Shown piece after piece: positions 10,489 through 61,664 of a stretch of 64,000 nt of DNA. Source of the DNA: a virus; UHGV virus genome UHGV-0209617; one strand, 5' to 3'. The notes beneath the pieces are model-generated. The model was not told the origin of the DNA, did no database searches, and saw only the letters and a program-made list of their open reading frames with translations. Made by a program: the position numbers and the translations under genes. Position 1 is the stretch's first letter, and every line of letters starts with the position of its first letter.

Positions 10489-10517
10489 TTGCCGTTGTAC
10501 TATTGACTTGCTATAAT
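10489..10517 (+). promoter_or_regulatory. Sigma-A-type promoter candidate (TTGCCG, 17-bp spacer, extended -10 TGcTATAAT)
   Basis: Hexamer spacing and extended -10 read directly; 49 nt upstream of the ATG at 10566. Confidence 0.5.
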
Positions 10518-10565
10518 TTAATAAATGACAATATTAATTTAATGAAGATACGGAGATTTGAGCAT

Positions 10566-11384
10566 ATGGAAAAGAATCTTGATGAGGCTGTTAAATGGTT
10601 GCGTAAGGCAGCAGAGCTTGGGCATAAGGATGCAATGGTAAAGCTGGGCGAGCTACTCAGTGGTACAGAGGAGCCATTGACAAAACTATTGGAAAAATCA
10701 TATATGGAAGGCTATGCAGATGGCAAAAATGGCAAGGCTAATAAATATTTCAAGGAAGCATATATTAAATCTACTATGGATAGAGCAGGTTTTGTTAATG
10801 TTAAGGTTGGAGATATAATCACATTTGGCAATTATTGGCAGGATAAAGATAAGTCAGCTGGTAAGCAGCCAGTAGAGTGGCAGGTGCTTGATGTCAAGGA
10901 TGGCAAGGCATTAGTTATTAGTAAATATGGTTTAATAAATCATAAATATAATAAAGAATGGACGGATGTTACATGGGAAACATGTACCTTGAGAAAATGG
11001 CTGAATGATACCTTTATTAAGGATATTTTCTCCGCAGAGGAAATGAAGGCTGTTATGTTATCAGATGTTAGTGCAGATAAAAATCCTAATTATAACACAA
11101 ATCAGGGAAATGACACTAAGGATAAATTGTTCCTGCTGAGTATAAAGGAAGTGGAGCAATATTTTGTTAGTGATGAAAAAAGACTGTGTAAGCCAACAGA
11201 ATATGCAGTTAACAACGGAGCTTATGAGAATAACCGTGGGCATAGTTGGTGGTGGCTACGCTCTGCTGGTGGCTATAGTAGCGATGCGGCGTATGTGGTC
11301 AGTTATGGCTGCGTCTACTACAGTGGCCGTAGTGTGTTCAGCGACGATGGTTCTGTGCGCCCAGCTTTTTGGCTAAATCTTTAG
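10566..11384 (+). CDS. Sel1-like repeat plus DUF6273-like domain protein
   Basis: N-terminal DEAVKWLRKAAELGHKDAMVKLGELL is Sel1/TPR-like; C-terminal W-rich block (WQVLDV...WETCTLRKWLN...WWWLRSAGGYS...VRPAFWLNL) is typical of the DUF6273 pattern as I recall it; start chosen at the ATG with a GGAG upstream. Confidence 0.6.
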   Translation: MEKNLDEAVKWLRKAAELGHKDAMVKLGELLSGTEEPLTKLLEKSYMEGYADGKNGKANKYFKEAYIKSTMDRAGFVNVKVGDIITFGNYWQDKDKSAGKQPVEWQVLDVKDGKALVISKYGLINHKYNKEWTDVTWETCTLRKWLNDTFIKDIFSAEEMKAVMLSDVSADKNPNYNTNQGNDTKDKLFLLSIKEVEQYFVSDEKRLCKPTEYAVNNGAYENNRGHSWWWLRSAGGYSSDAAYVVSYGCVYYSGRSVFSDDGSVRPAFWLNL

Positions 11385-11735: not shown

Positions 11736-12357
11736 AGTTTAGGTTGAGTATGTAGAACTGCTATTGGCAGGGGTGGGTATGTAGGGACAATGTGGTTCTG
11801 AAATAGTGAACATATCGAAGCTGAAAGGTACGTGGATATTGAGGTTAGGTAGATATGTTCAGTGCGAGCAGGTTGAATAGATATGAAAAGAAAATGCCCC
11901 AGACCGTGGTATTCCACTTCCTACAATAATTCAGTATGGCAGTGCCGTAACCGCTATTCAGCCGTGAAATGCAAGACCATGAATATCTATGACAAGCTGC
12001 TGTTTATGTCCTGCACGATGTGGCAAAGGACATACGGACAGCAATAGTGGAATTCGCAGCAGATGTGGTCAGTGCTGACAGGCTGGCAGCCATTGAACGC
12101 TACATAGAGAACTTTGAAAGCATGAGTGCCTGGAAGATGCTTTCCAATGCAGATGACCTGTAATTCGTGATGAACATGGTTCTGGTCAAAACGGATAGGC
12201 GCATTGAGGTGATATGGTTGGACGGTGGTGTGGATGGATATGAAATTCCGAGGTATACACCGAAGGGGGGATAGAATGATTAGGTGTCTTTTTAGCATTG
12301 TAAAAGTAATTACATTTACAATGCTAAAAAGATGTAGAAAATATTTTGTAATAGGGA

Positions 12358-12386
12358 TTGTAATTACAGCTTAAATATGCTAAAAT
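12358..12386 (+). promoter_or_regulatory. Promoter candidate for the R-M operon (TTGTAA, 17 bp, TAAAAT) overlapped by palindrome TGTAATTACA; second GTAATTAC palindrome at 12306-12313
   Basis: Hexamers and palindromes read directly; the palindrome overlaps the -35. Confidence 0.4.
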
Positions 12387-12631
12387 ATAAGATGAAAGAC
12401 TATATGGAAATGGAGGAACTACAGTTGAGCGAAATGAAAAGAAAAATGCCTATGGAACATTTGAATATTGGTGAGTTCAACCGTGGGCAATCTTCAAAAC
12501 TAATCCGTAACTTGGTGGAAAAAGATAATGCTGCATTTATACAAAAAAATGGGAAGCCAATAGCCGTTGTTATCTCCTATGAACGATACGAGAGACTGCT
12601 TGAGTCTGGCATTGATATCAATGAGTTCTGA
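12377..12631 (+). CDS. Phd/YefM-fold small protein, first gene of the R-M operon (candidate controller); true start may be the in-frame TTG at 12425 or ATG at 12434-12452
   Basis: NIGEFNRGQSSKLIRNLVEKDNAAFIQKNGKPIAVVISYERYERLLE matches the Phd/YefM N-terminal pattern; ends 11 nt before the methyltransferase ORF; no toxin partner follows. Confidence 0.55.
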   Translation: MLKYKMKDYMEMEELQLSEMKRKMPMEHLNIGEFNRGQSSKLIRNLVEKDNAAFIQKNGKPIAVVISYERYERLLESGIDINEF

Positions 12632-12642
12632 GTATTCAAAAC

Positions 12643-14298
12643 ATGATTAAGGAGGTAACGGAGATGGTTGCGAAAAATTATGGTGTTGTTTACACACCGA
12701 ATAGACTGGCTGAGTTCGCAGCAGAACTTTTATATAGAGAGGCAGCAGAAACTAATACAGAAATAAAGTCGGTATTGGATCCTGCGTGTGGCGAATGCGC
12801 ATTGCTATGTGCTGCAAAGAAATATTTGAATGGTAATGTGAAATATTTGGGAATTGATGTCGATAAAGAAGCAATAATGAATGTTGAGGATGATTTTGAA
12901 ATTCTTTATAATGATTCAATTCTTCCGCGAAATGTAAAAAAACAGACGGCAGAATATTGGAAGAGCAAGATGCCAGTAATATCTGCTATAATTGCAAATC
13001 CACCGTGGAGTTCCGAAAAAATATATGTGCGAGAAGAATTGCAGAGTGCCGGTTTCTCGTTGACCACAGGACAATATGATAGCTTTGTGCTATTTATTGA
13101 GTTGGCATATAATCTGCTTGATGATGGAGGATACTTTTCGTTTATTATCCCCGATTCGTTATTTGATGCACAAAACGAAAAACTAAGAAGATTTTTGACT
13201 GAAAAGATGCAAATCAAAGTGATTGCCAGACTTGGAGAGAAGATTTTTGAAGAAGTGAATAGAGCAACTACTGTTATTGTTTGCAGAAAAGAAAAGCCAG
13301 TCAAAGATTCTGTCACCCACTGTTTCAGACTTACTACGGAAGAAAGAAGAAAGTTTTTGAATTCGAATCAGAGTTTGTTAAACTTTTACAACGAAGATGT
13401 GCATGATGTGTTGCAGGGGCGATTTGCTGAAAACGCTGCCTGTAACTTTGACGTTGATACGCGCACTGATGAAGAGGCATTGTTGGCTAAAATTAAGAAG
13501 CAGTCTATAAGTTGGGAGGATATATTCATTTTTGGTCGAGGTGTTGAGATATCCAAAACAGGAAAGGTCGTATTTTGTCCTTCGTGTGGTTATGCCCAAG
13601 GGTATAAAAAATCACAAATGGCTGAAGGAAAAAAAGAATGTACGAACTGTGGCAGTGAGATATCGGTTACTACGGCAAGTGTTCAAAATGTTATTTCACA
13701 AAGTCAAACGCCACAGACTGTTCAGATATATGTTGGAGAGAATGTTCGGAGATATGGAATAACAGGAGAATGCTATATCAAACCCAACATTCCCGGAATC
13801 AATTATAAAAATCGTGCGATGTACAACCCACCAAAACTGTTGGTGAGAAAGACTGGACTTGGAATATATGCATCGATTGATTATACGGGAAGCATGACAA
13901 GTCAGGCTGTATATATTTTGAAATTTAAAAACAGTCAACATAAGGCTCCGTTGGAATATTATCTGGCATTGCTTAACTCACGAGTGGTCTACTATTTTTA
14001 TTTGAAAGTATATGGAGAAAATGAATGGAAGTCCCATCCGTACTTTACGAAACAGATTATTTATTCTCTGCCTATTAGAGAATATGAGGATAGTGAGTTA
14101 GATAAACAGATCATTAAAGTGGCATCGGAATTGGCGCATAAATATGAATATGTCAAGGATGTTCAGCTTGAGAAGTTGGTAATGAAAAAGTATGGTCTGT
14201 CAGAGACCGAAAGCAATATGGTTTATGGTGAGATGAATCGTCTGCCTGACTTGAGTGCGATTAACAATATGAAAGTTGAGGTGGAAGCGAATGTATAG
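12643..14298 (+). CDS. N6-adenine DNA methyltransferase, gamma-class order (motif I then NPPW), with zinc ribbon and C-terminal recognition domain; probable start ATG at 12664
   Basis: VLDPACGECALL (motif I-like), IIANPPWS (motif IV), CPSCG...CTNCG zinc ribbon; AAGGAGGT 8 nt before the ATG at 12664. Confidence 0.85.
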   Translation: MIKEVTEMVAKNYGVVYTPNRLAEFAAELLYREAAETNTEIKSVLDPACGECALLCAAKKYLNGNVKYLGIDVDKEAIMNVEDDFEILYNDSILPRNVKKQTAEYWKSKMPVISAIIANPPWSSEKIYVREELQSAGFSLTTGQYDSFVLFIELAYNLLDDGGYFSFIIPDSLFDAQNEKLRRFLTEKMQIKVIARLGEKIFEEVNRATTVIVCRKEKPVKDSVTHCFRLTTEERRKFLNSNQSLLNFYNEDVHDVLQGRFAENAACNFDVDTRTDEEALLAKIKKQSISWEDIFIFGRGVEISKTGKVVFCPSCGYAQGYKKSQMAEGKKECTNCGSEISVTTASVQNVISQSQTPQTVQIYVGENVRRYGITGECYIKPNIPGINYKNRAMYNPPKLLVRKTGLGIYASIDYTGSMTSQAVYILKFKNSQHKAPLEYYLALLNSRVVYYFYLKVYGENEWKSHPYFTKQIIYSLPIREYEDSELDKQIIKVASELAHKYEYVKDVQLEKLVMKKYGLSETESNMVYGEMNRLPDLSAINNMKVEVEANV

Positions 14299-15349
14299 AT
14301 ATATAGGAAACAAATCAAAGCTGACTCCATACATTCTTGATAGGGTGGAACAGCTTATTGGAAAAACAGGAATTGTTGCTGACATTATGGCTGGAACAGG
14401 AACTGTGGCATTAGAATTGAGAAAAGCAGGTTATTCGGTTATCGCATCTGATGTAATGACCTATTCGTACCATCATTTGATGGTTAATCTTTGCTTAGAT
14501 TCAGCTCCTTCTTTTTCTGGGCTTGTGAATCATGGAGCAATAGGCAAGAATGAGGTGGATGCATATGGTGCAATCCTGACTTATTTAAATTGCATTGAAC
14601 CCAAAGAAGGTTTTTTCTTCAAGGAATTTTCTCCGGGTGGAACACCGCAGAATGGTTGCGACCCGAGAAAATATTTCACTACGGAAAATGCAAAGAAAAT
14701 TGATGCGATTAGAGAAAAAATAAATGAGTGGATTGATAATGGATATGTGAGCAAAGCTGAAGAATCGCTTTTAAAACATACTCTTATTATGGCAGTAAAC
14801 GAGGTTGCCAATATATCTGGAACTTACGGATATTTTTTGGCTGATTTCAAAAAGAATGCCAATGCACAGATTGATTTAAAACCTGTGGAATTTTGTTCTG
14901 TGAATTCAACTGGTCACATGGTAAAATTGGGATTTGCTGAAAATTTAGCTGCAACAATTACAGTTGATTTGTGCTACATCGACCCTCCGTATATGAAGAG
15001 ACAGTATGCTGCGAATTATCATATTCTGGAAACCATTGCACGAGGAGATTTCCCTGATGCTGTTGGTAAAAGTGGCTTGCGTGACTGGTGGGAGCAGCAC
15101 TCTAAATTGTGTACCAAAACACGAGGATTACAATCGTTTGAAAAGATATTAGGTGATATGCATTGCCCGAAATTTCTGATTAGCTACAGTGAGGATGGTT
15201 TGTTTACGCTGGGGCAATTAGAAGAATGTTTTAGCAAGTTTGGAACTGTTGACGTTCAAGAAATTGATTACAATCGATTTAGAAGCAATGATAGCAAGTT
15301 GCCTAAAAAACTGAAGGAATATTTGATTTCTATAGAAAGGCAGGTATAA
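14291..15349 (+). CDS. D12-class (Dam-like, alpha-order) N6-adenine DNA methyltransferase
   Basis: RYIGNKSKL N-terminal motif, ADIMAGTGTV (motif I), CYIDPPYM (motif IV); ATG overlaps the upstream stop (ATGTATAG). Confidence 0.85.
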   Translation: MYRYIGNKSKLTPYILDRVEQLIGKTGIVADIMAGTGTVALELRKAGYSVIASDVMTYSYHHLMVNLCLDSAPSFSGLVNHGAIGKNEVDAYGAILTYLNCIEPKEGFFFKEFSPGGTPQNGCDPRKYFTTENAKKIDAIREKINEWIDNGYVSKAEESLLKHTLIMAVNEVANISGTYGYFLADFKKNANAQIDLKPVEFCSVNSTGHMVKLGFAENLAATITVDLCYIDPPYMKRQYAANYHILETIARGDFPDAVGKSGLRDWWEQHSKLCTKTRGLQSFEKILGDMHCPKFLISYSEDGLFTLGQLEECFSKFGTVDVQEIDYNRFRSNDSKLPKKLKEYLISIERQV

Positions 15350-15353
15350 GTGA

Positions 15354-17024
15354 ATGGAGTGCATTGAAAGAATATTTTACAGAAAGATTAATCCTTCTGA
15401 TTTCAAAAAGTTGTATGATATTGACAAACCAGAAGGTGGCGGTGGTCAGACATACTTGGAAGCCGCTGGTATTTCAAATGAAAAAATCGTTGATTTCCTT
15501 TCCTATGCGGAGGTTACAAACAGTCCTTTGCCAGATGAAACAAGGTCTGTTTATACATTCAATGCCTATGTTTTGGGCGATTCAAAGGGTAAATGTTCGT
15601 TTGTAGAATTTGCACCTCGCAAAGGAAGAAATAACTATCGTATAAGCCGTCAGAACATGAAATATAAACATCCGGCATGGAGTTTGGATAATGGATTTCC
15701 CGAACCATCAAAAGGTGATGATGGCGAATACACATCTGCAGGCGATTTTGTGGGAATCATTGATAATCTTGTTATTCTTATCATAAGAACTACAAATCGG
15801 CGTTATTATGCAGGTTTTGTAAATATAGCGACAATGCCAGAGAACTGGCCACACAATATTGGCTTAGAGGGCATTTTTAGTGGTGAACGCAGAGATGTAC
15901 TAAAAATGGATGCGTATAAACTACAGTTTGTTAATGATGCCTGTAATCCATTCGGTGATTATGTCCCAACAATCGAAGAATGTAATCGAGCGACTACTGG
16001 TTGCAATGTGCTTTTGTACGGAGTTCCCGGAGCAGGAAAGAGTTGGACAATTGAACACGAATATTGTGCCGATGAAGGGTGTATGGAGCGATTGGTTTTC
16101 CATCCGGATTATATGTATTCGGATTTCGTTGGACAAATTTTGCCTGTAGTAAGGGACGATGACAAGGTTCGTTATGAGTTTACGCCGGGTCCGTTTACCA
16201 AATTATTAAAAAAAGCATATTGGAATACAGAACAGTCTTTTTACCTTATAATAGAAGAAATAAATCGTGGTAATGCACCAGCGATATTCGGTGAAATATT
16301 TCAGCTTTTGGATAGAAAAGATGAAGACGAAATAGATGAAAATAGGGAGATTCTCTACAAAAAAGGCACAAGTGAGTATGGAATAACAAATGCCAATATT
16401 GCACGAATCGTTTATGGCGATGAAAACCATAAGGTTCGAATTCCTGCAAATATGTCTATTTTGGGTACAATGAATACTTCTGACCAAAATGTTTTTACAT
16501 TAGACACAGCATTTCAGAGAAGATGGATTATGAGAATGATTCCGAATTCATTTGATAACCATAAGTTCGCAGACAAGAAGATTTTGGATACTGATATTTC
16601 CTGGAGACAGTTCTGTGAAGCAATTAATGAGGAAATTTTGCGTAGAAACAACATCACATCTTCTGAGGATAAGCGACTTGGGGCATATTTTATCTCGGCT
16701 TCGGATTTGGAGATGAAACCAATCACAGACGGGATGAGCGAAAAAGAAAAAATCCAAGTGGAGCATAGCAACAGCAGATTTGCAGAAAAAGTATTGAAAT
16801 ATTTATGGGATGATGCTTTCAAATTTTCCCATCAAGATACATTTAACACAAGACAGTTTGGTAGTCTTGAAAAAGTTATCGAAGGCTTTATGAATCCTGC
16901 CAAGCCTAAAAATGAGCGTTTTCGTGTATTCAATGAGAACCTTCGTAAAATGATTTTGGATGGAGTAACAGCAGAATCAAACGAGGTTTCTGATGATGAC
17001 AGCGAAGGCTCACAGGAATCTTAA
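15354..17024 (+). CDS. McrB-like AAA+ GTPase restriction subunit with an N-terminal domain of about 200 aa that I cannot assign
   Basis: LLYGVPGAGKSW (Walker A), LIIEEINRGNAPAIFGEIFQLLDR (McrB-type IDEINRAN-like motif), ILGTMNTSDQN (NTxD-type motif). Confidence 0.85.
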   Translation: MECIERIFYRKINPSDFKKLYDIDKPEGGGGQTYLEAAGISNEKIVDFLSYAEVTNSPLPDETRSVYTFNAYVLGDSKGKCSFVEFAPRKGRNNYRISRQNMKYKHPAWSLDNGFPEPSKGDDGEYTSAGDFVGIIDNLVILIIRTTNRRYYAGFVNIATMPENWPHNIGLEGIFSGERRDVLKMDAYKLQFVNDACNPFGDYVPTIEECNRATTGCNVLLYGVPGAGKSWTIEHEYCADEGCMERLVFHPDYMYSDFVGQILPVVRDDDKVRYEFTPGPFTKLLKKAYWNTEQSFYLIIEEINRGNAPAIFGEIFQLLDRKDEDEIDENREILYKKGTSEYGITNANIARIVYGDENHKVRIPANMSILGTMNTSDQNVFTLDTAFQRRWIMRMIPNSFDNHKFADKKILDTDISWRQFCEAINEEILRRNNITSSEDKRLGAYFISASDLEMKPITDGMSEKEKIQVEHSNSRFAEKVLKYLWDDAFKFSHQDTFNTRQFGSLEKVIEGFMNPAKPKNERFRVFNENLRKMILDGVTAESNEVSDDDSEGSQES

Positions 17025-17040
17025 AGCGAGGTGAGCGACA

Positions 17041-18321
17041 TTGGATTTAGGCTTAAACTTAAAAGTTAAATGTCATGTGAATAAAAATGGTGATGGCGAT
17101 AGGTTTGTCGGGATTAAGGCTGATGCTAATCAAGCAATGGTCTATTTTCCAATGGGGTATCGCCTGCCAGACAATGAAGAAGATATTAGGGATGATATTC
17201 TAAAATTGATTTCTGTATTAGCTGAGTTTACGGATTCAAAAGACAAGGTATTGGCTATGCAGAAATTTGAAGCACCACAGTCTGTGAATTTTCCAATCAA
17301 TGCCTATATGAATATTATCCGATACTATTTGGAACAACGTTCATATTACACAGAAAAGGATCCTATTCTAAAGACGAGTGACAGAGGAAAAATCGACTTT
17401 GCAGCATCTTTGCGTAGAAATGTTAGCTTTTTTCAAGAAGATGGAACTCCGTTTTTTGATAAATATACAGTAAAAGGGTCAACTCCTAATGATAAAAATT
17501 TAATAACTATGATTCACAAATACTGTGTGCATGAAAGTTTTGCTCAGATGGGTTGGCTGTTTATGCCGGATGTCCCACAAGATCCACATATTGAACGAAA
17601 CATTCCGCTTTTCCTCAGTGTACTGAAGAAAAAATTGGCAGTCACGCATCTTGAAAAGGATATTCTGCTATTTGAAGCAATGATTTCTATGCTGGAATAT
17701 TTGGATGAGAAAAGTGACGATAAACAATACTATTTTGGAACAGATAGATTTGAATATGTGTGGGAAAAACTGATAGATGCAGTGTTTGGCATAAAAGAAA
17801 AGAATGATTATTTTCCACGAACCTCTTGGAAACTAAACTATGGTGACCAACGAAGAAATTATGCATTAGAGCCGGACACCATAATGCTTTGTAATGGAAA
17901 AATCTATGTCATTGATGCAAAGTATTATAGATACGGTGTAACCGGTACACCTTCGCATTTGCCGGAATCATCATCTATCAACAAGCAGATTACATATGGT
18001 GAGTACATATATAATCATAAGAAATTTAAGGATGTATATGGTGATGATGTTCCTGTGTATAACGCATTCCTTATGCCGTATAACAAACAGGATAATCCAT
18101 TTCATATCAATGAGTATTTCGCCAATATTGGTGAGGCTGATAGTGACTGGAAATATGGCAATCATAATTATGAACGGGTGCAAGGAATTGTAGTTGATAT
18201 TCGTTTCTTGATGAACAATTACTATGGTTCGCACAAGAGTAAAATTATTAAGATGGCGAAGCTCATCGAGGAAGCCCTGCAGGAAAATGCAGATACGCTT
18301 CCAGAAGAAAAGACTGAATAA
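17041..18321 (+). CDS. McrC-like PD-(D/E)xK nuclease subunit (TTG start)
   Basis: ALEPDTIMLCNGKIYVIDAKYY gives PD...D-x-K; position immediately after the McrB-like gene; GAGGTGA 7 nt before the TTG. Confidence 0.75.
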   Translation: MDLGLNLKVKCHVNKNGDGDRFVGIKADANQAMVYFPMGYRLPDNEEDIRDDILKLISVLAEFTDSKDKVLAMQKFEAPQSVNFPINAYMNIIRYYLEQRSYYTEKDPILKTSDRGKIDFAASLRRNVSFFQEDGTPFFDKYTVKGSTPNDKNLITMIHKYCVHESFAQMGWLFMPDVPQDPHIERNIPLFLSVLKKKLAVTHLEKDILLFEAMISMLEYLDEKSDDKQYYFGTDRFEYVWEKLIDAVFGIKEKNDYFPRTSWKLNYGDQRRNYALEPDTIMLCNGKIYVIDAKYYRYGVTGTPSHLPESSSINKQITYGEYIYNHKKFKDVYGDDVPVYNAFLMPYNKQDNPFHINEYFANIGEADSDWKYGNHNYERVQGIVVDIRFLMNNYYGSHKSKIIKMAKLIEEALQENADTLPEEKTE

Positions 18322-18362
18322 AAAATCCGCAAGCAGTGATTATGCTGTTTGCGGATTTTTTA
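18321..18362. terminator. Bidirectional rho-independent terminator between the R-M operon and the convergent CGNR gene
   Basis: A-run, ATCCGCAAGCAG / CTGTTTGCGGAT stem, then TTTTTT. Confidence 0.65.
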
Positions 18363-19544
18363 TTTGCCCTTTTGAACTTTGATGCGATGGGAACGTTGAT
18401 TATTTGCGTTTCTACAGTTACTGCAACAATATTTATTTCTACTATTGGATGTCTTTACTAAGAAATATTTATGGCAAGAAGGATTGGCACACTTTCTATA
18501 TATTTCAGATCCGGGTTTCATGTAGAAAATAGAAAAATATAATGCAGAAAGCAATGATGGTGCCTTCCACGACGGTTCCAGTGAATTGGGACTGTAGAAA
18601 GGTTTTATACTTCTGGTATTATGATTTATTTCCCCACTTAAAACGAGTCGTGCGATAAGAGTAGCAGCCTCTTTTAATGGACTGTTAAATTTGCTGAAAT
18701 CTGGACTACTATAGTATTCAATGCCGCCCTCGAAAGTTACAGCTTTTATTACACCAACAGAATGCATATAGTGAAACAGGAATTCAACCATTAGTCGGAG
18801 CTTCTTGGATTGAATATTGTTATTCTTGTAAGCAATAGTAACCTGGCGATACAGCGTATCATTAATTCCAGGATAATCGTATGTAAATGTTTCTCCGTTT
18901 GAAATATCATCATATTCATCAGCATTTAATTCATATGAAGGAGCATAAATCATGTCTTTTACGGTAATAGATTCTGTTTCAGAGGATTGCTGTAGTGAAT
19001 CGATAGAGGCTTGATTTCTGATGCTATCATGAAATGGATGCCGATAGGTTGAATAAGTAATTCGTGCAGTGCCATTAAGCGTAACTTGTGTCCCAAGAAG
19101 CAAATACAAAGTTAAATGTAGAATCTGTTCATAATCAAGTGATGGTTTTTCCACTGCGGCCATAAGGAGAACTGTAGCCTTTATTCGATTCAAGACTTCT
19201 ACAAGCGCTACTATATCAATTTCCGTTCCTTCGGGCGAAATAGGAAGTAGATAACCATGTTCCTCGAAAAAACCAAGGACCTTTTTTACATTGGTTGCCG
19301 GAAGCGATATCAGAGAACCGAGAACATTTTTATTTTGAAGTGAACCGTGTGGAGTCGTTAAACATAAACCTCGGCTTCCGCTAAAGGCATAATTTATAAT
19401 TTCATCATTCACGGGATAGACTGTTAATATTTTATGCGCCTGCCCGTCCGTCTTTAAGACTTCTTCTATTCTAAATGTACATTTTTTGCAACTCAAAGAA
19501 AAATAATCGTTGCTAAGATTGAAAAAATTGTCTAACTCAGTCAT
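18360..19544 (-). CDS. Protein with C-terminal CGNR-type zinc finger; N-terminal ~340 aa unassigned
   Basis: C-terminus CANPSCHKYFLVKTSNSRNKYCCSNCRNANNQRSHRIK fits the CGNR zinc-finger pattern (C-x2-C ... C-x2-C-R). Confidence 0.65.
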   Translation of the reverse strand: MTELDNFFNLSNDYFSLSCKKCTFRIEEVLKTDGQAHKILTVYPVNDEIINYAFSGSRGLCLTTPHGSLQNKNVLGSLISLPATNVKKVLGFFEEHGYLLPISPEGTEIDIVALVEVLNRIKATVLLMAAVEKPSLDYEQILHLTLYLLLGTQVTLNGTARITYSTYRHPFHDSIRNQASIDSLQQSSETESITVKDMIYAPSYELNADEYDDISNGETFTYDYPGINDTLYRQVTIAYKNNNIQSKKLRLMVEFLFHYMHSVGVIKAVTFEGGIEYYSSPDFSKFNSPLKEAATLIARLVLSGEINHNTRSIKPFYSPNSLEPSWKAPSLLSALYFSIFYMKPGSEIYRKCANPSCHKYFLVKTSNSRNKYCCSNCRNANNQRSHRIKVQKGK

Positions 19545-19978
19545 AAAAAACTACTCCATATTTCCTTGCCCCTCGTAGAAGGGTCTTTTTTTATGTCGAA
19601 AAGTAAGTGATTACATAAGTAATAATGTAATTATAACGCTTACTATTGCTTGTTTCAAGCTAGTATAGTAATGAAATACACAGAAAGTAAGTGATTATAT
19701 CAGAAATTTACTTACTATACTGAAATTCTTATACTTAAAGACAGTGAAGGACAACCAAACTTTATATACAGCGGAGGTGTTTTTCACATCCCTGTTTCAA
19801 TGTTCATCGCCTGATCAGCGATGCCCAGAGCGGAGAAACGGACACAAGTAAATATCAGTCAACCCACTGGGACGGTTGGCCAGCTAAGAAATGAGGATTT
19901 CATTCTTATGGCCAATTATTATGGGAAGTTCAGTGTGGGTCCTCATTTCGGTTTTCAGACCGAAGGAGGGTCTACACG

Positions 19979-20488
19979 ATGGACAAATTTGAAAATCTAC
20001 AGACAAGCAACGAGAAGCAGTATTACATTCCTTTGGAAGTAACCGCAGAAACTATCAGAGATTTTGGCATCAACCCTAAAGATGTGGTATGGACGAGAAT
20101 CGGGAACAAGCCTAAAAAGGTTGTTATGATTCCCGTAACCGAGGAGCAGTACAAAACATTTATGCGTCCTCTGTGGCGTGAGGACAAGCGTCAGCAAAGA
20201 CAGGAGCCGATGGCATCGCTGGATAAGATGTACGAAAAAACCGAGTACGAAGCGGCTGATACCGACTCTGACCTTGAAGCGAATATTATGAAGAAAATGC
20301 TGATTGATGAGCTTCACAAGGCACTGGATGAACTGGAAGAAATCGACCGCACCATTATGAAGATGTACAGCAATAACCATAGCGAAGCCGAAATCGGACA
20401 GACTATCGGTATGAGCCAGAAGGGTGTTAATAAACGTAAGCACAAGGTGCTGCTGAAACTTAACACCAGATTGAAAGACTTCAGATAA
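19979..20488 (+). CDS. Sigma-70 region-4-like HTH protein (putative phage transcription factor)
   Basis: C-terminal EIGQTIGMSQKGVNKRKHKVLLKL HTH; GAAGGAGGG SD. Confidence 0.65.
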   Translation: MDKFENLQTSNEKQYYIPLEVTAETIRDFGINPKDVVWTRIGNKPKKVVMIPVTEEQYKTFMRPLWREDKRQQRQEPMASLDKMYEKTEYEAADTDSDLEANIMKKMLIDELHKALDELEEIDRTIMKMYSNNHSEAEIGQTIGMSQKGVNKRKHKVLLKLNTRLKDFR

Positions 20489-58725: not shown

Positions 58726-59030
58726 TGAAGAACTTAATAGTACAGTTTTCTGCATGGGCGCAGGCCAACTGGCTTGCGCTTGTTATTTTTATGATTTTTT
58801 CCATGATGGCATTCCTGTGCATGGTCATGGGAAGCTGGCTTTATGGCTACTGGTCAAATGCTCTCTGCGGCACGAAGTTTGAACTTGGTAGCTGCTGGCA
58901 GGGAATCACTGTTGTTATCACGGGCCTTGGCGGTGTTGCAGCACTGGCCAAGGCTGCATGGACCAAGTATTCAACGGACAGCCAGTATAACAGCATGATG
59001 GGGAGTCATCCATACGAAAGGGGTAAGTGA
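58725..59030 (+). CDS. Holin (two predicted TM segments)
   Basis: Two hydrophobic stretches; immediately upstream of the endolysin. Confidence 0.6.
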   Translation: MKNLIVQFSAWAQANWLALVIFMIFSMMAFLCMVMGSWLYGYWSNALCGTKFELGSCWQGITVVITGLGGVAALAKAAWTKYSTDSQYNSMMGSHPYERGK

Positions 59031-59602
59031 TTATGATTAAGGGTATTGATGTATCGGAGAACAACGGCACTGTAGATTGGCAGGCAGTAAAGAATGCCGG
59101 GATTGAGTTTGCTATTGTAAGAAGCTCCTATGGTAAGACGGGAGTGGATGAGAAGTTCCTGGAAAATGTAAATGGTGCTCATGCAGTGGGGCTGAAGGTT
59201 GGTGCTTACCATTATGGCTATGGCCTGACTCCGGCTGATGCAGTGCTTGAAGCAAGGAACTGCCGTGAGGTAATTGATGAGGCAGGAGTGCTTCTGGAGC
59301 TTCCTGTTTTCTATGACATGGAAGATGCTGATGGCTATAAAGAAAGACACGGATTTTGGTTTGACCCAGAGAATGCCACAGGTATCTGCAGGGCATTCCT
59401 GGATAACATTGGCCTGAACTGTGGTGTATACGCATCATACAGCTGGCTTTGTGATTTGATTGACTGGCGCAGTCTCGGCTGCTCAGTCTGGAACGCAGAA
59501 TGGGGAGGTAGCGATGATATTGAAGGATATATGTGGCAGTTTACGGAAAAGCTTTATATCTCTGGTAAGCAGTTTGATGGAAACTATCTCTACAACTGGT
59601 AA
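59027..59602 (+). CDS. GH25-family lysozyme endolysin (muramidase)
   Basis: IKGIDVSENNGTVDWQAVKNAGIEFAIVR ... GAYHY pattern typical of GH25. Confidence 0.8.
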   Translation: MIMIKGIDVSENNGTVDWQAVKNAGIEFAIVRSSYGKTGVDEKFLENVNGAHAVGLKVGAYHYGYGLTPADAVLEARNCREVIDEAGVLLELPVFYDMEDADGYKERHGFWFDPENATGICRAFLDNIGLNCGVYASYSWLCDLIDWRSLGCSVWNAEWGGSDDIEGYMWQFTEKLYISGKQFDGNYLYNW

Positions 59603-60203: not shown

Positions 60204-60228
60204 ATAAGCACGGTTGGAGGTGATTGCC

Positions 60229-60810
60229 ATGAATGACATTGAAAAGCTTGTTGATGAGTCAGGAATGATTACAACTAGAGATATAGTGAAAAATAATCAG
60301 TCAAAAGTAGAATTTTACAATTACCTGAGAAAAAATGATTTTGAACAAGTATCGCGTGGTATATATGCTTCTAAGGATGCGTGGGTAGACCCATTATTGA
60401 TTGCGCATATGAGATGTCCTAAAGCGGTGATCTCTCATGATGTGGCACTTCATTATTATGGCTTGGTTGATAGAGAGCCTTCAGCTCCAACGCTTACTAT
60501 TTATTCTGGATACAACACAAGCAGGTTAAAAGAAGCAGGGTACAAGGTGTTTTTCGTGAAGAAGGAATACCTTGATGCTGGCAAAGAAGAGGTTGTAAAT
60601 TTTGATGGCAACATCATTCCTATGTATAACCTTGAAAGAACGATGTGTGACCTTGTCAGAAACAGAAGCAGCTTTGAGATTCAAGATTTCAATGCAGCTA
60701 TAAAAGCGTATGCCAGAAAAAAGGAAAAGAATCTTACAAGGCTATTTGAATATGCGAAAATGCTTAGGGTGGAAAAATTGATGCGGTCATATATGGAGGT
60801 GCTTTTGTAA
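60229..60810 (+). CDS. abiEi: AbiEi-family antitoxin / transcriptional regulator
   Basis: N-terminal DNA-binding-like region ending ...VSRGIYA; paired with a DUF1814-type nucleotidyltransferase; GGAGGTGA SD. Confidence 0.75.
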   Translation: MNDIEKLVDESGMITTRDIVKNNQSKVEFYNYLRKNDFEQVSRGIYASKDAWVDPLLIAHMRCPKAVISHDVALHYYGLVDREPSAPTLTIYSGYNTSRLKEAGYKVFFVKKEYLDAGKEEVVNFDGNIIPMYNLERTMCDLVRNRSSFEIQDFNAAIKAYARKKEKNLTRLFEYAKMLRVEKLMRSYMEVLL

Positions 60811-61664
60811 TGATCTTATCAGCTGCACAGGCAAGAGGCAGGATTAAGAATATTGTGGCAAAAAATGGTGCGGACCCAAGACTGCTTATGAGAATTTATA
60901 TGATGGAGAGATTTTTGGAACGAGTATCCCTTTCTGCATACAAGGATAATTTCATCATTAAGGGCGGAATGCTTATAACATCATTGGTTGGTATTTCCAT
61001 GCGGTCAACTATGGATATTGACACAACTGTAAAAGGCCAGGATGTAAGCATGGAAAATGCACAGCGTATTGTTAAAGAAATTGCTGACATTCAGATTGAT
61101 GATGGGGTTTCTTTTGTGATTAAAGATGTAGAAAACATAATGGATGAGATGGAATATCCAGGAATCAAATTTCACTTGGAAGTGTTATTAGACAAAATGG
61201 TTACGCCAATAAAGATTGATGTTTCTACGGGCGATGCAATTACACCCAGAGCGATTGAATATAATTACAAGCTTATGCTTGAAGATAGAGAAATCGGGCT
61301 GTGGAGCTATAATCTGGAAACAATCCTTGGGGAAAAATTACAGACGATACTTGTACGTGAACGTGCAAACACCAGAATGAGAGATTTCTATGATATATGT
61401 GTATTGGTAGAAATGTATGACAGTAAGATAAATACTGTCAATTTCAAAGCAGCATATGAGGCGACCTGTAGAAAAAGAGGGTCATTACACTTATTTGGTA
61501 ATGAAGGAAAAATACTGGATATAATAGCTGGTGAAAGTAAAATGATTGATAGATGGACAAATTATCAGAAGAAGTTTTCTTATGCATCTGATATCAGTTT
61601 TGAGAAAGCTATTCAGTGTGCAAAGGGGTTAATTTCATTCTTGAAAAATAGTACCGGAAAATAA
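60810..61664 (+). CDS. abiEii: AbiEii-family nucleotidyltransferase toxin (DUF1814-type)
   Basis: 284 aa directly coupled to the AbiEi gene; typical gene pair. Confidence 0.75.
   Translation: MILSAAQARGRIKNIVAKNGADPRLLMRIYMMERFLERVSLSAYKDNFIIKGGMLITSLVGISMRSTMDIDTTVKGQDVSMENAQRIVKEIADIQIDDGVSFVIKDVENIMDEMEYPGIKFHLEVLLDKMVTPIKIDVSTGDAITPRAIEYNYKLMLEDREIGLWSYNLETILGEKLQTILVRERANTRMRDFYDICVLVEMYDSKINTVNFKAAYEATCRKRGSLHLFGNEGKILDIIAGESKMIDRWTNYQKKFSYASDISFEKAIQCAKGLISFLKNSTGK

Follow-up and report, generated by a model that had tools for sequence, protein, structure and literature searches.

We analysed a gene for a 394-amino-acid (aa) protein with a C-terminal CGNR-type zinc finger in the viral genome UHGV-0209617, of which we treat the whole 64,000-nucleotide (nt) stretch as the window. 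The gene lies between a restriction-modification (R-M) operon of the LlaJI type, on which it converges, and the early operon of a phage. A first-pass annotation, made from the letters alone, had left its role open between regulator, defence component and unrelated gene. Our comparisons indicate that the gene is cargo of a phage-borne defence cassette, inherited together with the restriction genes R1 and R2, and that its product is probably an autoregulated DNA-binding regulator. The locus is laid out as follows.

18360..19544, minus strand: CGNR-family gene, 394 aa, with ~345 N-terminal aa of unrecognised fold and a basic C-terminal Cys4 finger
18363..18497, minus strand: CGNR-type treble-clef finger and basic tail (codons 350-394; C352, C357, C373, C377; net charge +11, isoelectric point (pI) 10)
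18316..18365, no strand assigned: bidirectional intrinsic terminator common to the CGNR gene and R2, its hairpin overlapping both stop codons
17041..18321, plus strand: R2, LlaJI-family (McrC-like) endonuclease, RE_LlaJI, convergent on the CGNR gene
15354..17024, plus strand: R1, McrB-like AAA_5 GTPase subunit
12643..15349, plus strand: M1 (N6_Mtase/TaqI_C) and M2 (D12-class) adenine methyltransferases
12377..12631, plus strand: small Phd/YefM-like gene heading the R-M operon, a candidate for its controller, with a palindrome ahead of it at 12290-12331
19979..20488, plus strand: sigma-70 region-4-like gene that opens the phage early/replication operon; its divergent placement next to the CGNR gene is conserved

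The open reading frame (ORF) called at first pass proved genuine: it is intact in the window and matches a PHROGs family over its full length (phrog_30403, function unassigned; E 1.5e-43; residues 32-389 against profile positions 29-392 of 397). Its C-terminus has the four cysteine ligands with treble-clef spacing and the basic helix that define zf-CGNR, and C352, N354, C357, C373, C377 and R387 are invariant in alignments of 40-48 homologs. The zinc finger claimed earlier therefore stands as a Cys4 CGNR-type finger at the level of the family, in which many homologs have a precomputed match to Pfam PF11706, but the window protein itself falls below the Pfam gathering threshold (18.8 bits against 24; E 0.0014; residues 350-387). 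The motif at the last cysteine reads C-R-N-A in both the window protein and the family consensus, as opposed to the eponymous C-G-N-R, and is shifted or degenerate; the window finger aligns to residues 148-186 of the CGNR finger in PDB 3h0n without significance (E 0.58). The finger segment has a net charge of +9 to +11 and a pI of 10, and the 345 residues before it are mildly acidic (net charge -8 to -11, pI 5.1-5.6).

Residues 1-345 gave a confident structure model. Remote homology and structure prediction returned no match for them among Pfam, PDB or BFVD folds, which agrees with the earlier remark that the N-terminal ~340 aa resemble nothing recognised. NCBIfam and PADLOC scans of the whole protein found no match, the Pfam scan found no helix-turn-helix (HTH), and no ABATE domain (PF07336) is detectable in the N-terminal region. 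Motifs of nucleases, toxins or NTPases were not recognised in the family, whose invariant residues are for the most part aromatic or structural. The architecture is uniform, at ~400 aa, in an exhaustive profile search. Domain fusions were considered as a clue to function, and the longer variants (P0267, P0258 and others) have no informative extra Pfam domain.

The genes at 12643-18321 form a LlaJI-type system by their Pfam and PADLOC assignments, with two methyltransferases, an AAA_5/McrB-like R1 and an RE_LlaJI R2 in one operon. R2 and the CGNR gene are 38 nt apart, and the hairpin between them is flanked by A and T runs and has energies of -29.6 and -22.2 kcal/mol on the two strands (z -11 and -9.6). 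These folding z-scores confirm the bidirectional terminator that had been proposed between the CGNR gene and the McrC-like gene. A second, plus-strand terminator at 19562-19602 was rejected, the window hairpin being no better than shuffled sequence; relatives have a stronger stem.

We examined the co-occurrence of the gene with such operons from three independent anchors, all of which tie it to a LlaJI/McrBC-like operon. With the CGNR gene as anchor, a family peptide pattern scanned over one genome per species gave 76 loci, mostly in Bacillota, 69 of them with at least 1.5 kb of downstream sequence. An R2 homolog was present at 63/69, directly convergent at 56 of these 63 with a median gap of ~100 nt and followed by R1. 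With R2 as anchor, a scan of IMG/VR gave 80 loci, and a CGNR-family gene was found on all 78 viral contigs with enough downstream sequence (78/78). Among the 50,697 phage records of INPHARED, R2 occurs in 7 and the CGNR gene in 7/7 of those, including Phi1207.3, phiD12 and two Ca. Heliusvirales genomes, and both genes lie inside a complete phage genome. With the phage backbone as anchor, the window DUF2800 protein retrieved 80 sister loci at 67-91% identity. Upstream sequence extended over 4 kb or more in 52 of these; among the 52, both the CGNR gene and R2 were present in 10, 42 had neither and 0 had only one of the two. The sizes of the families (2051 R2 and 220 CGNR matches) are uninformative, because the word pre-filter favours the better-conserved R2.

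Homologs in contexts with no association to defence, which would have been at odds with such a link, were not found. Even the six CGNR loci lacking R2 adjoin other defence or DNA-modification genes, namely Hachiman HamA with a helicase, GmrSD_N with Mrr, or methylases. In distant family members without LlaJI, the CGNR gene is followed by HamA and a DEAD helicase or by GmrSD_N and an Mrr-type nuclease (L066 11710-15773; L069 11535-16253).

This company raises the alternative that the protein is an independent defence component, a sensor, guard or abortive-infection effector backing up the R-M system, much as PrrC guards EcoprrI. The gene always sits in a defence hotspot, its R2-less neighbours are those just listed, and the unrecognised N-terminal fold leaves room for an effector activity. 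The missing PADLOC match, the lack of a nuclease, toxin or NTPase motif and the aromatic or structural character of the invariant residues speak against it, however, and a guard should serve equally well on plasmids and chromosomes, where the gene decays (see below). We consider this role improbable.

Distance-matrix (mirror-tree) correlations separate the cassette from the phage backbone. The CGNR gene correlates with R2 at 0.89-0.92 and with R1 at 0.85-0.90, beside 0.88-0.89 for R1 with R2, and DUF2800, the single-stranded DNA-binding protein (SSB) and PolA correlate at 0.79-0.87 with one another. Correlations across these blocks, and those against the sigma-like gene, are 0.29-0.57, with values of 0.36-0.50 for the CGNR gene against the sigma-like gene, DUF2800, SSB and PolA. 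Taken with the anchored counts, these comparisons show a gene gained, lost and diversified along with R1 and R2.

The border of the cassette could be placed within the 435-nt intergenic region between the divergent CGNR and sigma-like genes.

19785..19790, no strand assigned: junction between accessory cassette and phage backbone, where cassette-less sisters lose homology leftward and base composition shifts

Nucleotide homology of the cassette-less sisters to the window ends to the left of ~19785-19790, and the guanine-plus-cytosine (GC) fraction rises from ~0.36 to ~0.47 near 20 kb. The replication module behind the sigma-like gene comprises DUF2800, an Enc34-type SSB and PolA. In the cassette-less sisters the slot is filled by type I R-M genes, an AAA_13 protein or ABC-3C components. 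Three phages with backbones 96-98% identical share one breakpoint, at which one of them has a type I R-M system and the other two have different LlaJI/CGNR cassettes. Thus, the 42 sisters without the gene, the swaps at the breakpoint and the correlation blocks together show, at the level of genome comparison, that the CGNR gene is cassette cargo in a defence hotspot and not a core phage gene. The hotspot lies directly upstream of the early operon in Phi1207.3-like or Ca. Heliusvirales-like temperate phages. Two features of the first-pass annotation need revision. The "prophage left end" next to the gene is the cassette/backbone junction near 19785, as sister-phage homology indicates, and the R-M operon, rather than being host DNA beyond a prophage end, is together with the CGNR gene accessory cargo inside complete phage genomes. 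The slot upstream of the sigma-like gene is a fast-turnover defence hotspot (L175, L176, L177, L184, L205, L230), and the cargo seen in it includes HsdM/HsdS, AAA_13, ABC-3C (CTD11, CTD6, DUF2326) and LlaJI/CGNR.

These data bear directly on the idea that the gene encodes the core lysogeny repressor of the prophage, an analogue of CI with no relation to R-M. The position is the classical one: the first early gene is transcribed away from it, across a region of operator-like repeats. However, 42/52 close phages (those with DUF2800 67-91% identical) lack the gene and hold other defence cargo in the slot, the gene never occurs without R2 in this set, and it co-diverges with R1/R2 and not with the phage genes. 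We rejected a core CI-like repressor as highly implausible, given the 42 sister phages without the gene. An anti-sigma partner of the sigma-like neighbour was also rejected, the sigma-like gene being present in phages without the CGNR gene as well.

Outside phages the gene is absent or broken. The LlaJI system of the Lactococcus plasmid pNP40 was established experimentally as a four-gene R-M system of M1, M2, R1 and R2 (O'Driscoll et al., PMC1459862). A CGNR gene is missing from it, even though its R2 falls within the group of CGNR-linked R2s and is 70% identical to that of viral L104. On L. plantarum plasmids with an R2 97% identical to that of L104, the CGNR gene is reduced to codons ~225-394, and in a chromosomal island flanked by insertion sequences, with an R2 95% identical to viral L092/L093, the remnant is 22 codons of the 3' end. 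Neither another chromosomal LlaJI copy nor a Treponema megaplasmid has the gene. Absent from pNP40 and truncated or absent in the plasmid and chromosomal copies, the CGNR protein does not qualify as a required subunit. Since pNP40 LlaJI works without the gene and non-phage copies keep truncated remnants, it is dispensable for restriction. These comparisons also show a gene that degenerates once the cassette sits outside a phage. In three viral contigs (L127, L133, L134) the CGNR gene is split into 3-4 ORF fragments beside apparently intact R1/R2, which could be real decay or assembly error.

Inside phages the gene withstands considerable rearrangement. It is intact beside R1/R2 on three phage backbones (DUF2800/PolA, SNF2/PolA-exo and Mu-like) and in loci with a flipped R-M operon (L253, for which hhalign gave confirmation at 100%). 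Homologs as little as ~25% identical are still intact, while the adjoining methylases and the sigma-like gene get exchanged, and methyltransferase families are swapped while the R1(AAA)-R2-CGNR core stays. At five loci (L037, L040, L062, L077, L136) the divergent pair of sigma-like and CGNR genes is inverted as a unit, with its intergenic region, relative to R1-R2 and the replication module; L037, L062 and L136 are among the rearranged loci in which the CGNR gene stayed intact. One clade has a split R1 (L245-L247, L255-L256), in which a ~232-253-aa protein without a Pfam match is followed by a 360-367-aa AAA_5 protein. The split probably puts the DNA-recognition domain and the GTPase on separate polypeptides, a division of R1 that BsuMI reportedly has too.

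The DNA between the CGNR gene and the junction is organised around two back-to-back promoters.

19630..19658, minus strand: promoter-like site of the CGNR gene (TTGAAA, 17-nt spacer, TATAAT; 11/12 consensus matches)
19600..19647, no strand assigned: promoter-proximal operator-like pair, AGTAAG at 19602-19607 and CTTACT at 19639-19644, bracketing the -10 and the predicted start
19686..19716, no strand assigned: distal dyad AGTAAGT-N17-ACTTACT, containing the 15-nt block AGTAAGTAAATTTCT (minus strand)
19707..19735, plus strand: rightward promoter-like site (TTTACT, 17 nt, TATACT), facing the phage early operon

A direct repeat, AAAGTAAGTGATTA, recurs at a distance of 84 nt in this upstream region, and the dyad occurs once in the 64-kb window. 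The DNA upstream of the CGNR gene is more conserved than its coding sequence. The block AGTAAGTAAATTTCT shows no more than one mismatch across loci whose CGNR proteins are just ~47-50% identical. With up to two mismatches it was found in 55/153 upstream regions at a fixed position (median -213), and these account for 55 of its 65 matches in 4.5 Mb. On the opposite strand the block supplies the -35 element, TTTACT, of the rightward promoter. Every one of the 40 distinct regions bearing the 15-mer has a TANNNT -10 element at exactly 17 nt (40/40, in seven sequence variants), and all keep the divergent promoters. A clade with 31-35% protein identity shares this layout, with variant half-sites (e.g. 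CCATTAYTT), and so do loci on another phage backbone. The rightward promoter lies within the cassette, ~50 nt from the backbone junction. Together these features are the signature of a conserved rightward promoter that is carried by the cassette and directed into the sigma-like gene and early operon.

The AGTAAG/CTTACT half-sites around back-to-back promoters suggest an autoregulated DNA-binding regulator, and this is probably the role of the CGNR protein, as far as comparison can tell. Among the roles considered, a regulator is the best supported, by the conserved operator-like DNA; an unrelated gene is excluded, and a required restriction subunit is excluded by pNP40. The fuller reading, that phage-borne LlaJI cassettes (M1-M2-R1-R2) carry the CGNR gene as an accessory fifth component acting as an autoregulated regulator at the interface of cassette and early operon, has in our estimate about an even chance of being right.

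Under this proposal the protein would be a one-component DNA-binding regulator whose large N-terminal domain presents the basic treble-clef finger as an oligomer, and the wide spacing of the half-sites (19-31 bp) would be consistent with oligomerisation, predicting an extended dimer or tetramer. The fingers would bind the two pairs of AGTAAG/CTTACT half-sites around the back-to-back promoters at the right edge of the cassette. Binding to the proximal pair, over the -10 and start of the gene's own promoter, would give autoregulation. The distal dyad overlaps the -35 of the rightward promoter, and protein bound there would gate the transcription that leaves the cassette for the sigma-like gene and the rest of the early operon. 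Regulator and strong bidirectional terminator would then connect an R-M operon active in the lysogen with the silent lytic genes of the phage while preventing spill-over.

Several observations weigh against this proposal. The assignment of the CGNR protein as the binder rests on comparison, and a host factor could be the one that binds the conserved sites. Only 22/127 distinct upstream regions contain two or more copies of the exact half-site hexamer, so the more distant clades must use variant half-sites. The gene is kept where the R-M operon points away from the early operon (L253, L020, L024, L047), an arrangement that disfavours a purely insulating role and points to a closer link with R1/R2, and the same hotspot has co-directional cargo without a CGNR gene (L205). 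A pure transcriptional insulator is weakened by both of these observations. The conserved 345-residue N-terminal domain exceeds the needs of a simple repressor, and in a Mu-like context (L251) the gene has neither a sigma-like neighbour nor the motif. Finally, physical adjacency by itself could yield much of the co-divergence of the CGNR gene with R2.

The last of these points is the basis for regarding the gene as a passive hitch-hiker, linked to R-M genes through the shared descent of one cassette lineage and having no functional tie to R-M or phage. Adjacent genes are expected to co-diverge, and all of the evidence is comparative. Against this, the protein has stayed intact at divergences down to ~25% identity, on three or more different phage backbones and despite several rearrangements, while the equally adjacent methylases and sigma-like gene were exchanged. 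Its loss outside phages is repeated and specific, and the upstream DNA is better conserved than the coding sequence. We find a hitch-hiker very improbable.

The main rival to regulation at the DNA level is a safety catch acting at the protein level on the R1-R2 complex. The N-terminal domain would bind R1-R2 and restrain restriction while unmethylated phage DNA builds up, during lytic replication or the establishment of lysogeny, with the finger serving only for autoregulation or for tethering to DNA. This would account for a co-divergence with R1/R2 as tight as that between R1 and R2 themselves, for retention of the gene whichever direction the R-M operon faces, and for the persistence of the R1(AAA)-R2-CGNR core through methyltransferase swaps. 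A need specific to phages fits the decay outside them, and in the Mu-like element the CGNR gene follows MuA/MuB-like early genes on the same strand. However, a broken CGNR gene stands beside apparently intact R1/R2 in L127 and L134, and cassettes outside phages survive without the gene, so that it is not an essential antidote. The conserved layout of divergent promoters and operators would also be left unexplained. The N-terminal pI of ~5.1 is not that of an Ocr/ArdA-like DNA mimic, and an anti-restriction protein of that kind (pI about 4) was rejected on charge, the N-terminal region having no fold match. We hold a safety catch to be unlikely overall.

A DNA-binding protein within an R-M cassette could also time transcription of the R-M operon itself, as a controller resembling C proteins, and at some loci the CGNR gene immediately precedes HTH-M-M-R1-R2 on the same strand. 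It usually converges on the operon from its 3' end, however, and neither the size nor the fold resembles C proteins (394 aa, no HTH). A copy of the operator upstream of the R-M operon was looked for in the window, and the dyad is absent there. The operon moreover has a small leader gene of its own. This Phd/YefM-like ORF (84 aa; 28.1 bits, slightly under the Pfam cut-off) lies behind the palindrome TTTTAGCATTGTAAA...TTTACAATGCTAAAA and may be the controller of the R-M operon; an HTH_3/HTH_26 gene takes its place in other LlaJI operons. Control of the operon by the CGNR protein accordingly seems quite improbable to us.

The regulator proposed here has functional analogues, and its family has been tabled before. 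Like lambda CI at OR and the C proteins of R-M systems, it would be encoded divergently from genes that it possibly gates, with operators overlapping back-to-back promoters and a site placed for autoregulation. Unlike them, it has no HTH and no homology to them, its half-sites are 19-31 bp apart as against about 10 bp, and its gene is accessory cargo that does not stand upstream of the restriction gene as C genes do. The window shares the four-gene core of pNP40 LlaJI, with an R2 50% identical to that of pNP40. It differs in having two adenine methylases where pNP40 has C5 methylases, and the phage-borne form has in addition a convergent CGNR gene equipped with a promoter/operator region of its own.

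Two published elements contain relatives. Orf15 of Phi1207.3, the mef(A)/msr(D) phage of S. pyogenes, is a family member (28% identical, ~384-398 aa), and Orf6 of Tn6164 from C. difficile M120 matches the family by its published description (PMC3485107). Both converge on a LlaJI-like R gene and stand next to a sigma-like gene heading a phage module. Both were tabled as CGNR zinc-finger proteins with function unassigned (PMC4260502 and PMC3485107), and the Tn6164 authors grouped Orf6 with the methylase/AAA/LlaJI module (PMC3485107). In contrast to the present analysis, neither paper notes a systematic association with LlaJI or proposes a function. The structure paper on an ABATE+CGNR protein (Jann_2411, PDB 3h0n) proposes DNA binding (PMC2954205); canonical members (PF07336/PF11706) are ~190 aa with an ABATE domain, whereas the window protein has a ~345-aa N-terminal region without a detectable one. 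The CoCoNuT (McrBC) census paper defers methyltransferase-associated systems, and the Heliusvirales paper does not mention the CGNR gene. Our literature searches returned mentions of the family in annotation tables only, with no functional study and no description of the association or of a function.

Further cargo and remnants flank the region described. To the left, a 163-aa ORF at 1721-2212 covers just the first third of the Phage_portal profile (E 1.6e-40) and is a truncated portal gene, presumably the remnant of another prophage left of the R-M region. Between 2500 and 11400 the plus strand carries ORFs of 187, 536, 225, 208 and 190 aa in DNA of very low GC fraction (0.29-0.35), without Pfam or PADLOC matches and followed by a DUF6273/Sel1 protein at 10503-11384; this run may be further uncharacterised cargo. 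The prophage right end comprises a GH25 lysin, an AbiEi/AbiEii pair and a Tn916-type tyrosine integrase. The pair lies at 60214-61664 in a low-GC patch (PADLOC 4e-63 and 2.5e-93), flanked by the lysin (59027-59602) and the integrase (62735 to the window end), and marks a second location of defence cargo.

LlaJI-type systems are the methyltransferase-associated branch of McrBC and are still poorly understood. When phage-borne, they include a fifth gene, strictly inherited with the others, whose product has an unrecognised fold and which current PADLOC models lack. In Ca. Heliusvirales-like prophages, a group counted among the most prevalent phages of the human gut, this gene is the marker of a defence hotspot with rapid turnover, and it also occurs in Phi1207.3, an S. 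pyogenes phage that spreads mef(A)/msr(D) and whose host is genetically manipulable. Its retention in phages only poses the question of what a restriction cassette needs solely when it rides a temperate phage. One answer, which we offer tentatively and think unlikely as it stands, is that the CGNR proteins may form a new, phage-specific class of control protein for McrBC-like restriction, in which the N-terminal domain would read the R1-R2 complex or the state of the phage DNA and the finger would convert that reading into rightward transcription, started at the promoter on the cassette and running into the early genes of the phage. If this were true, the state of the restriction system would be mechanistically coupled to the lysis-lysogeny programme of a very widespread lineage of gut phages.

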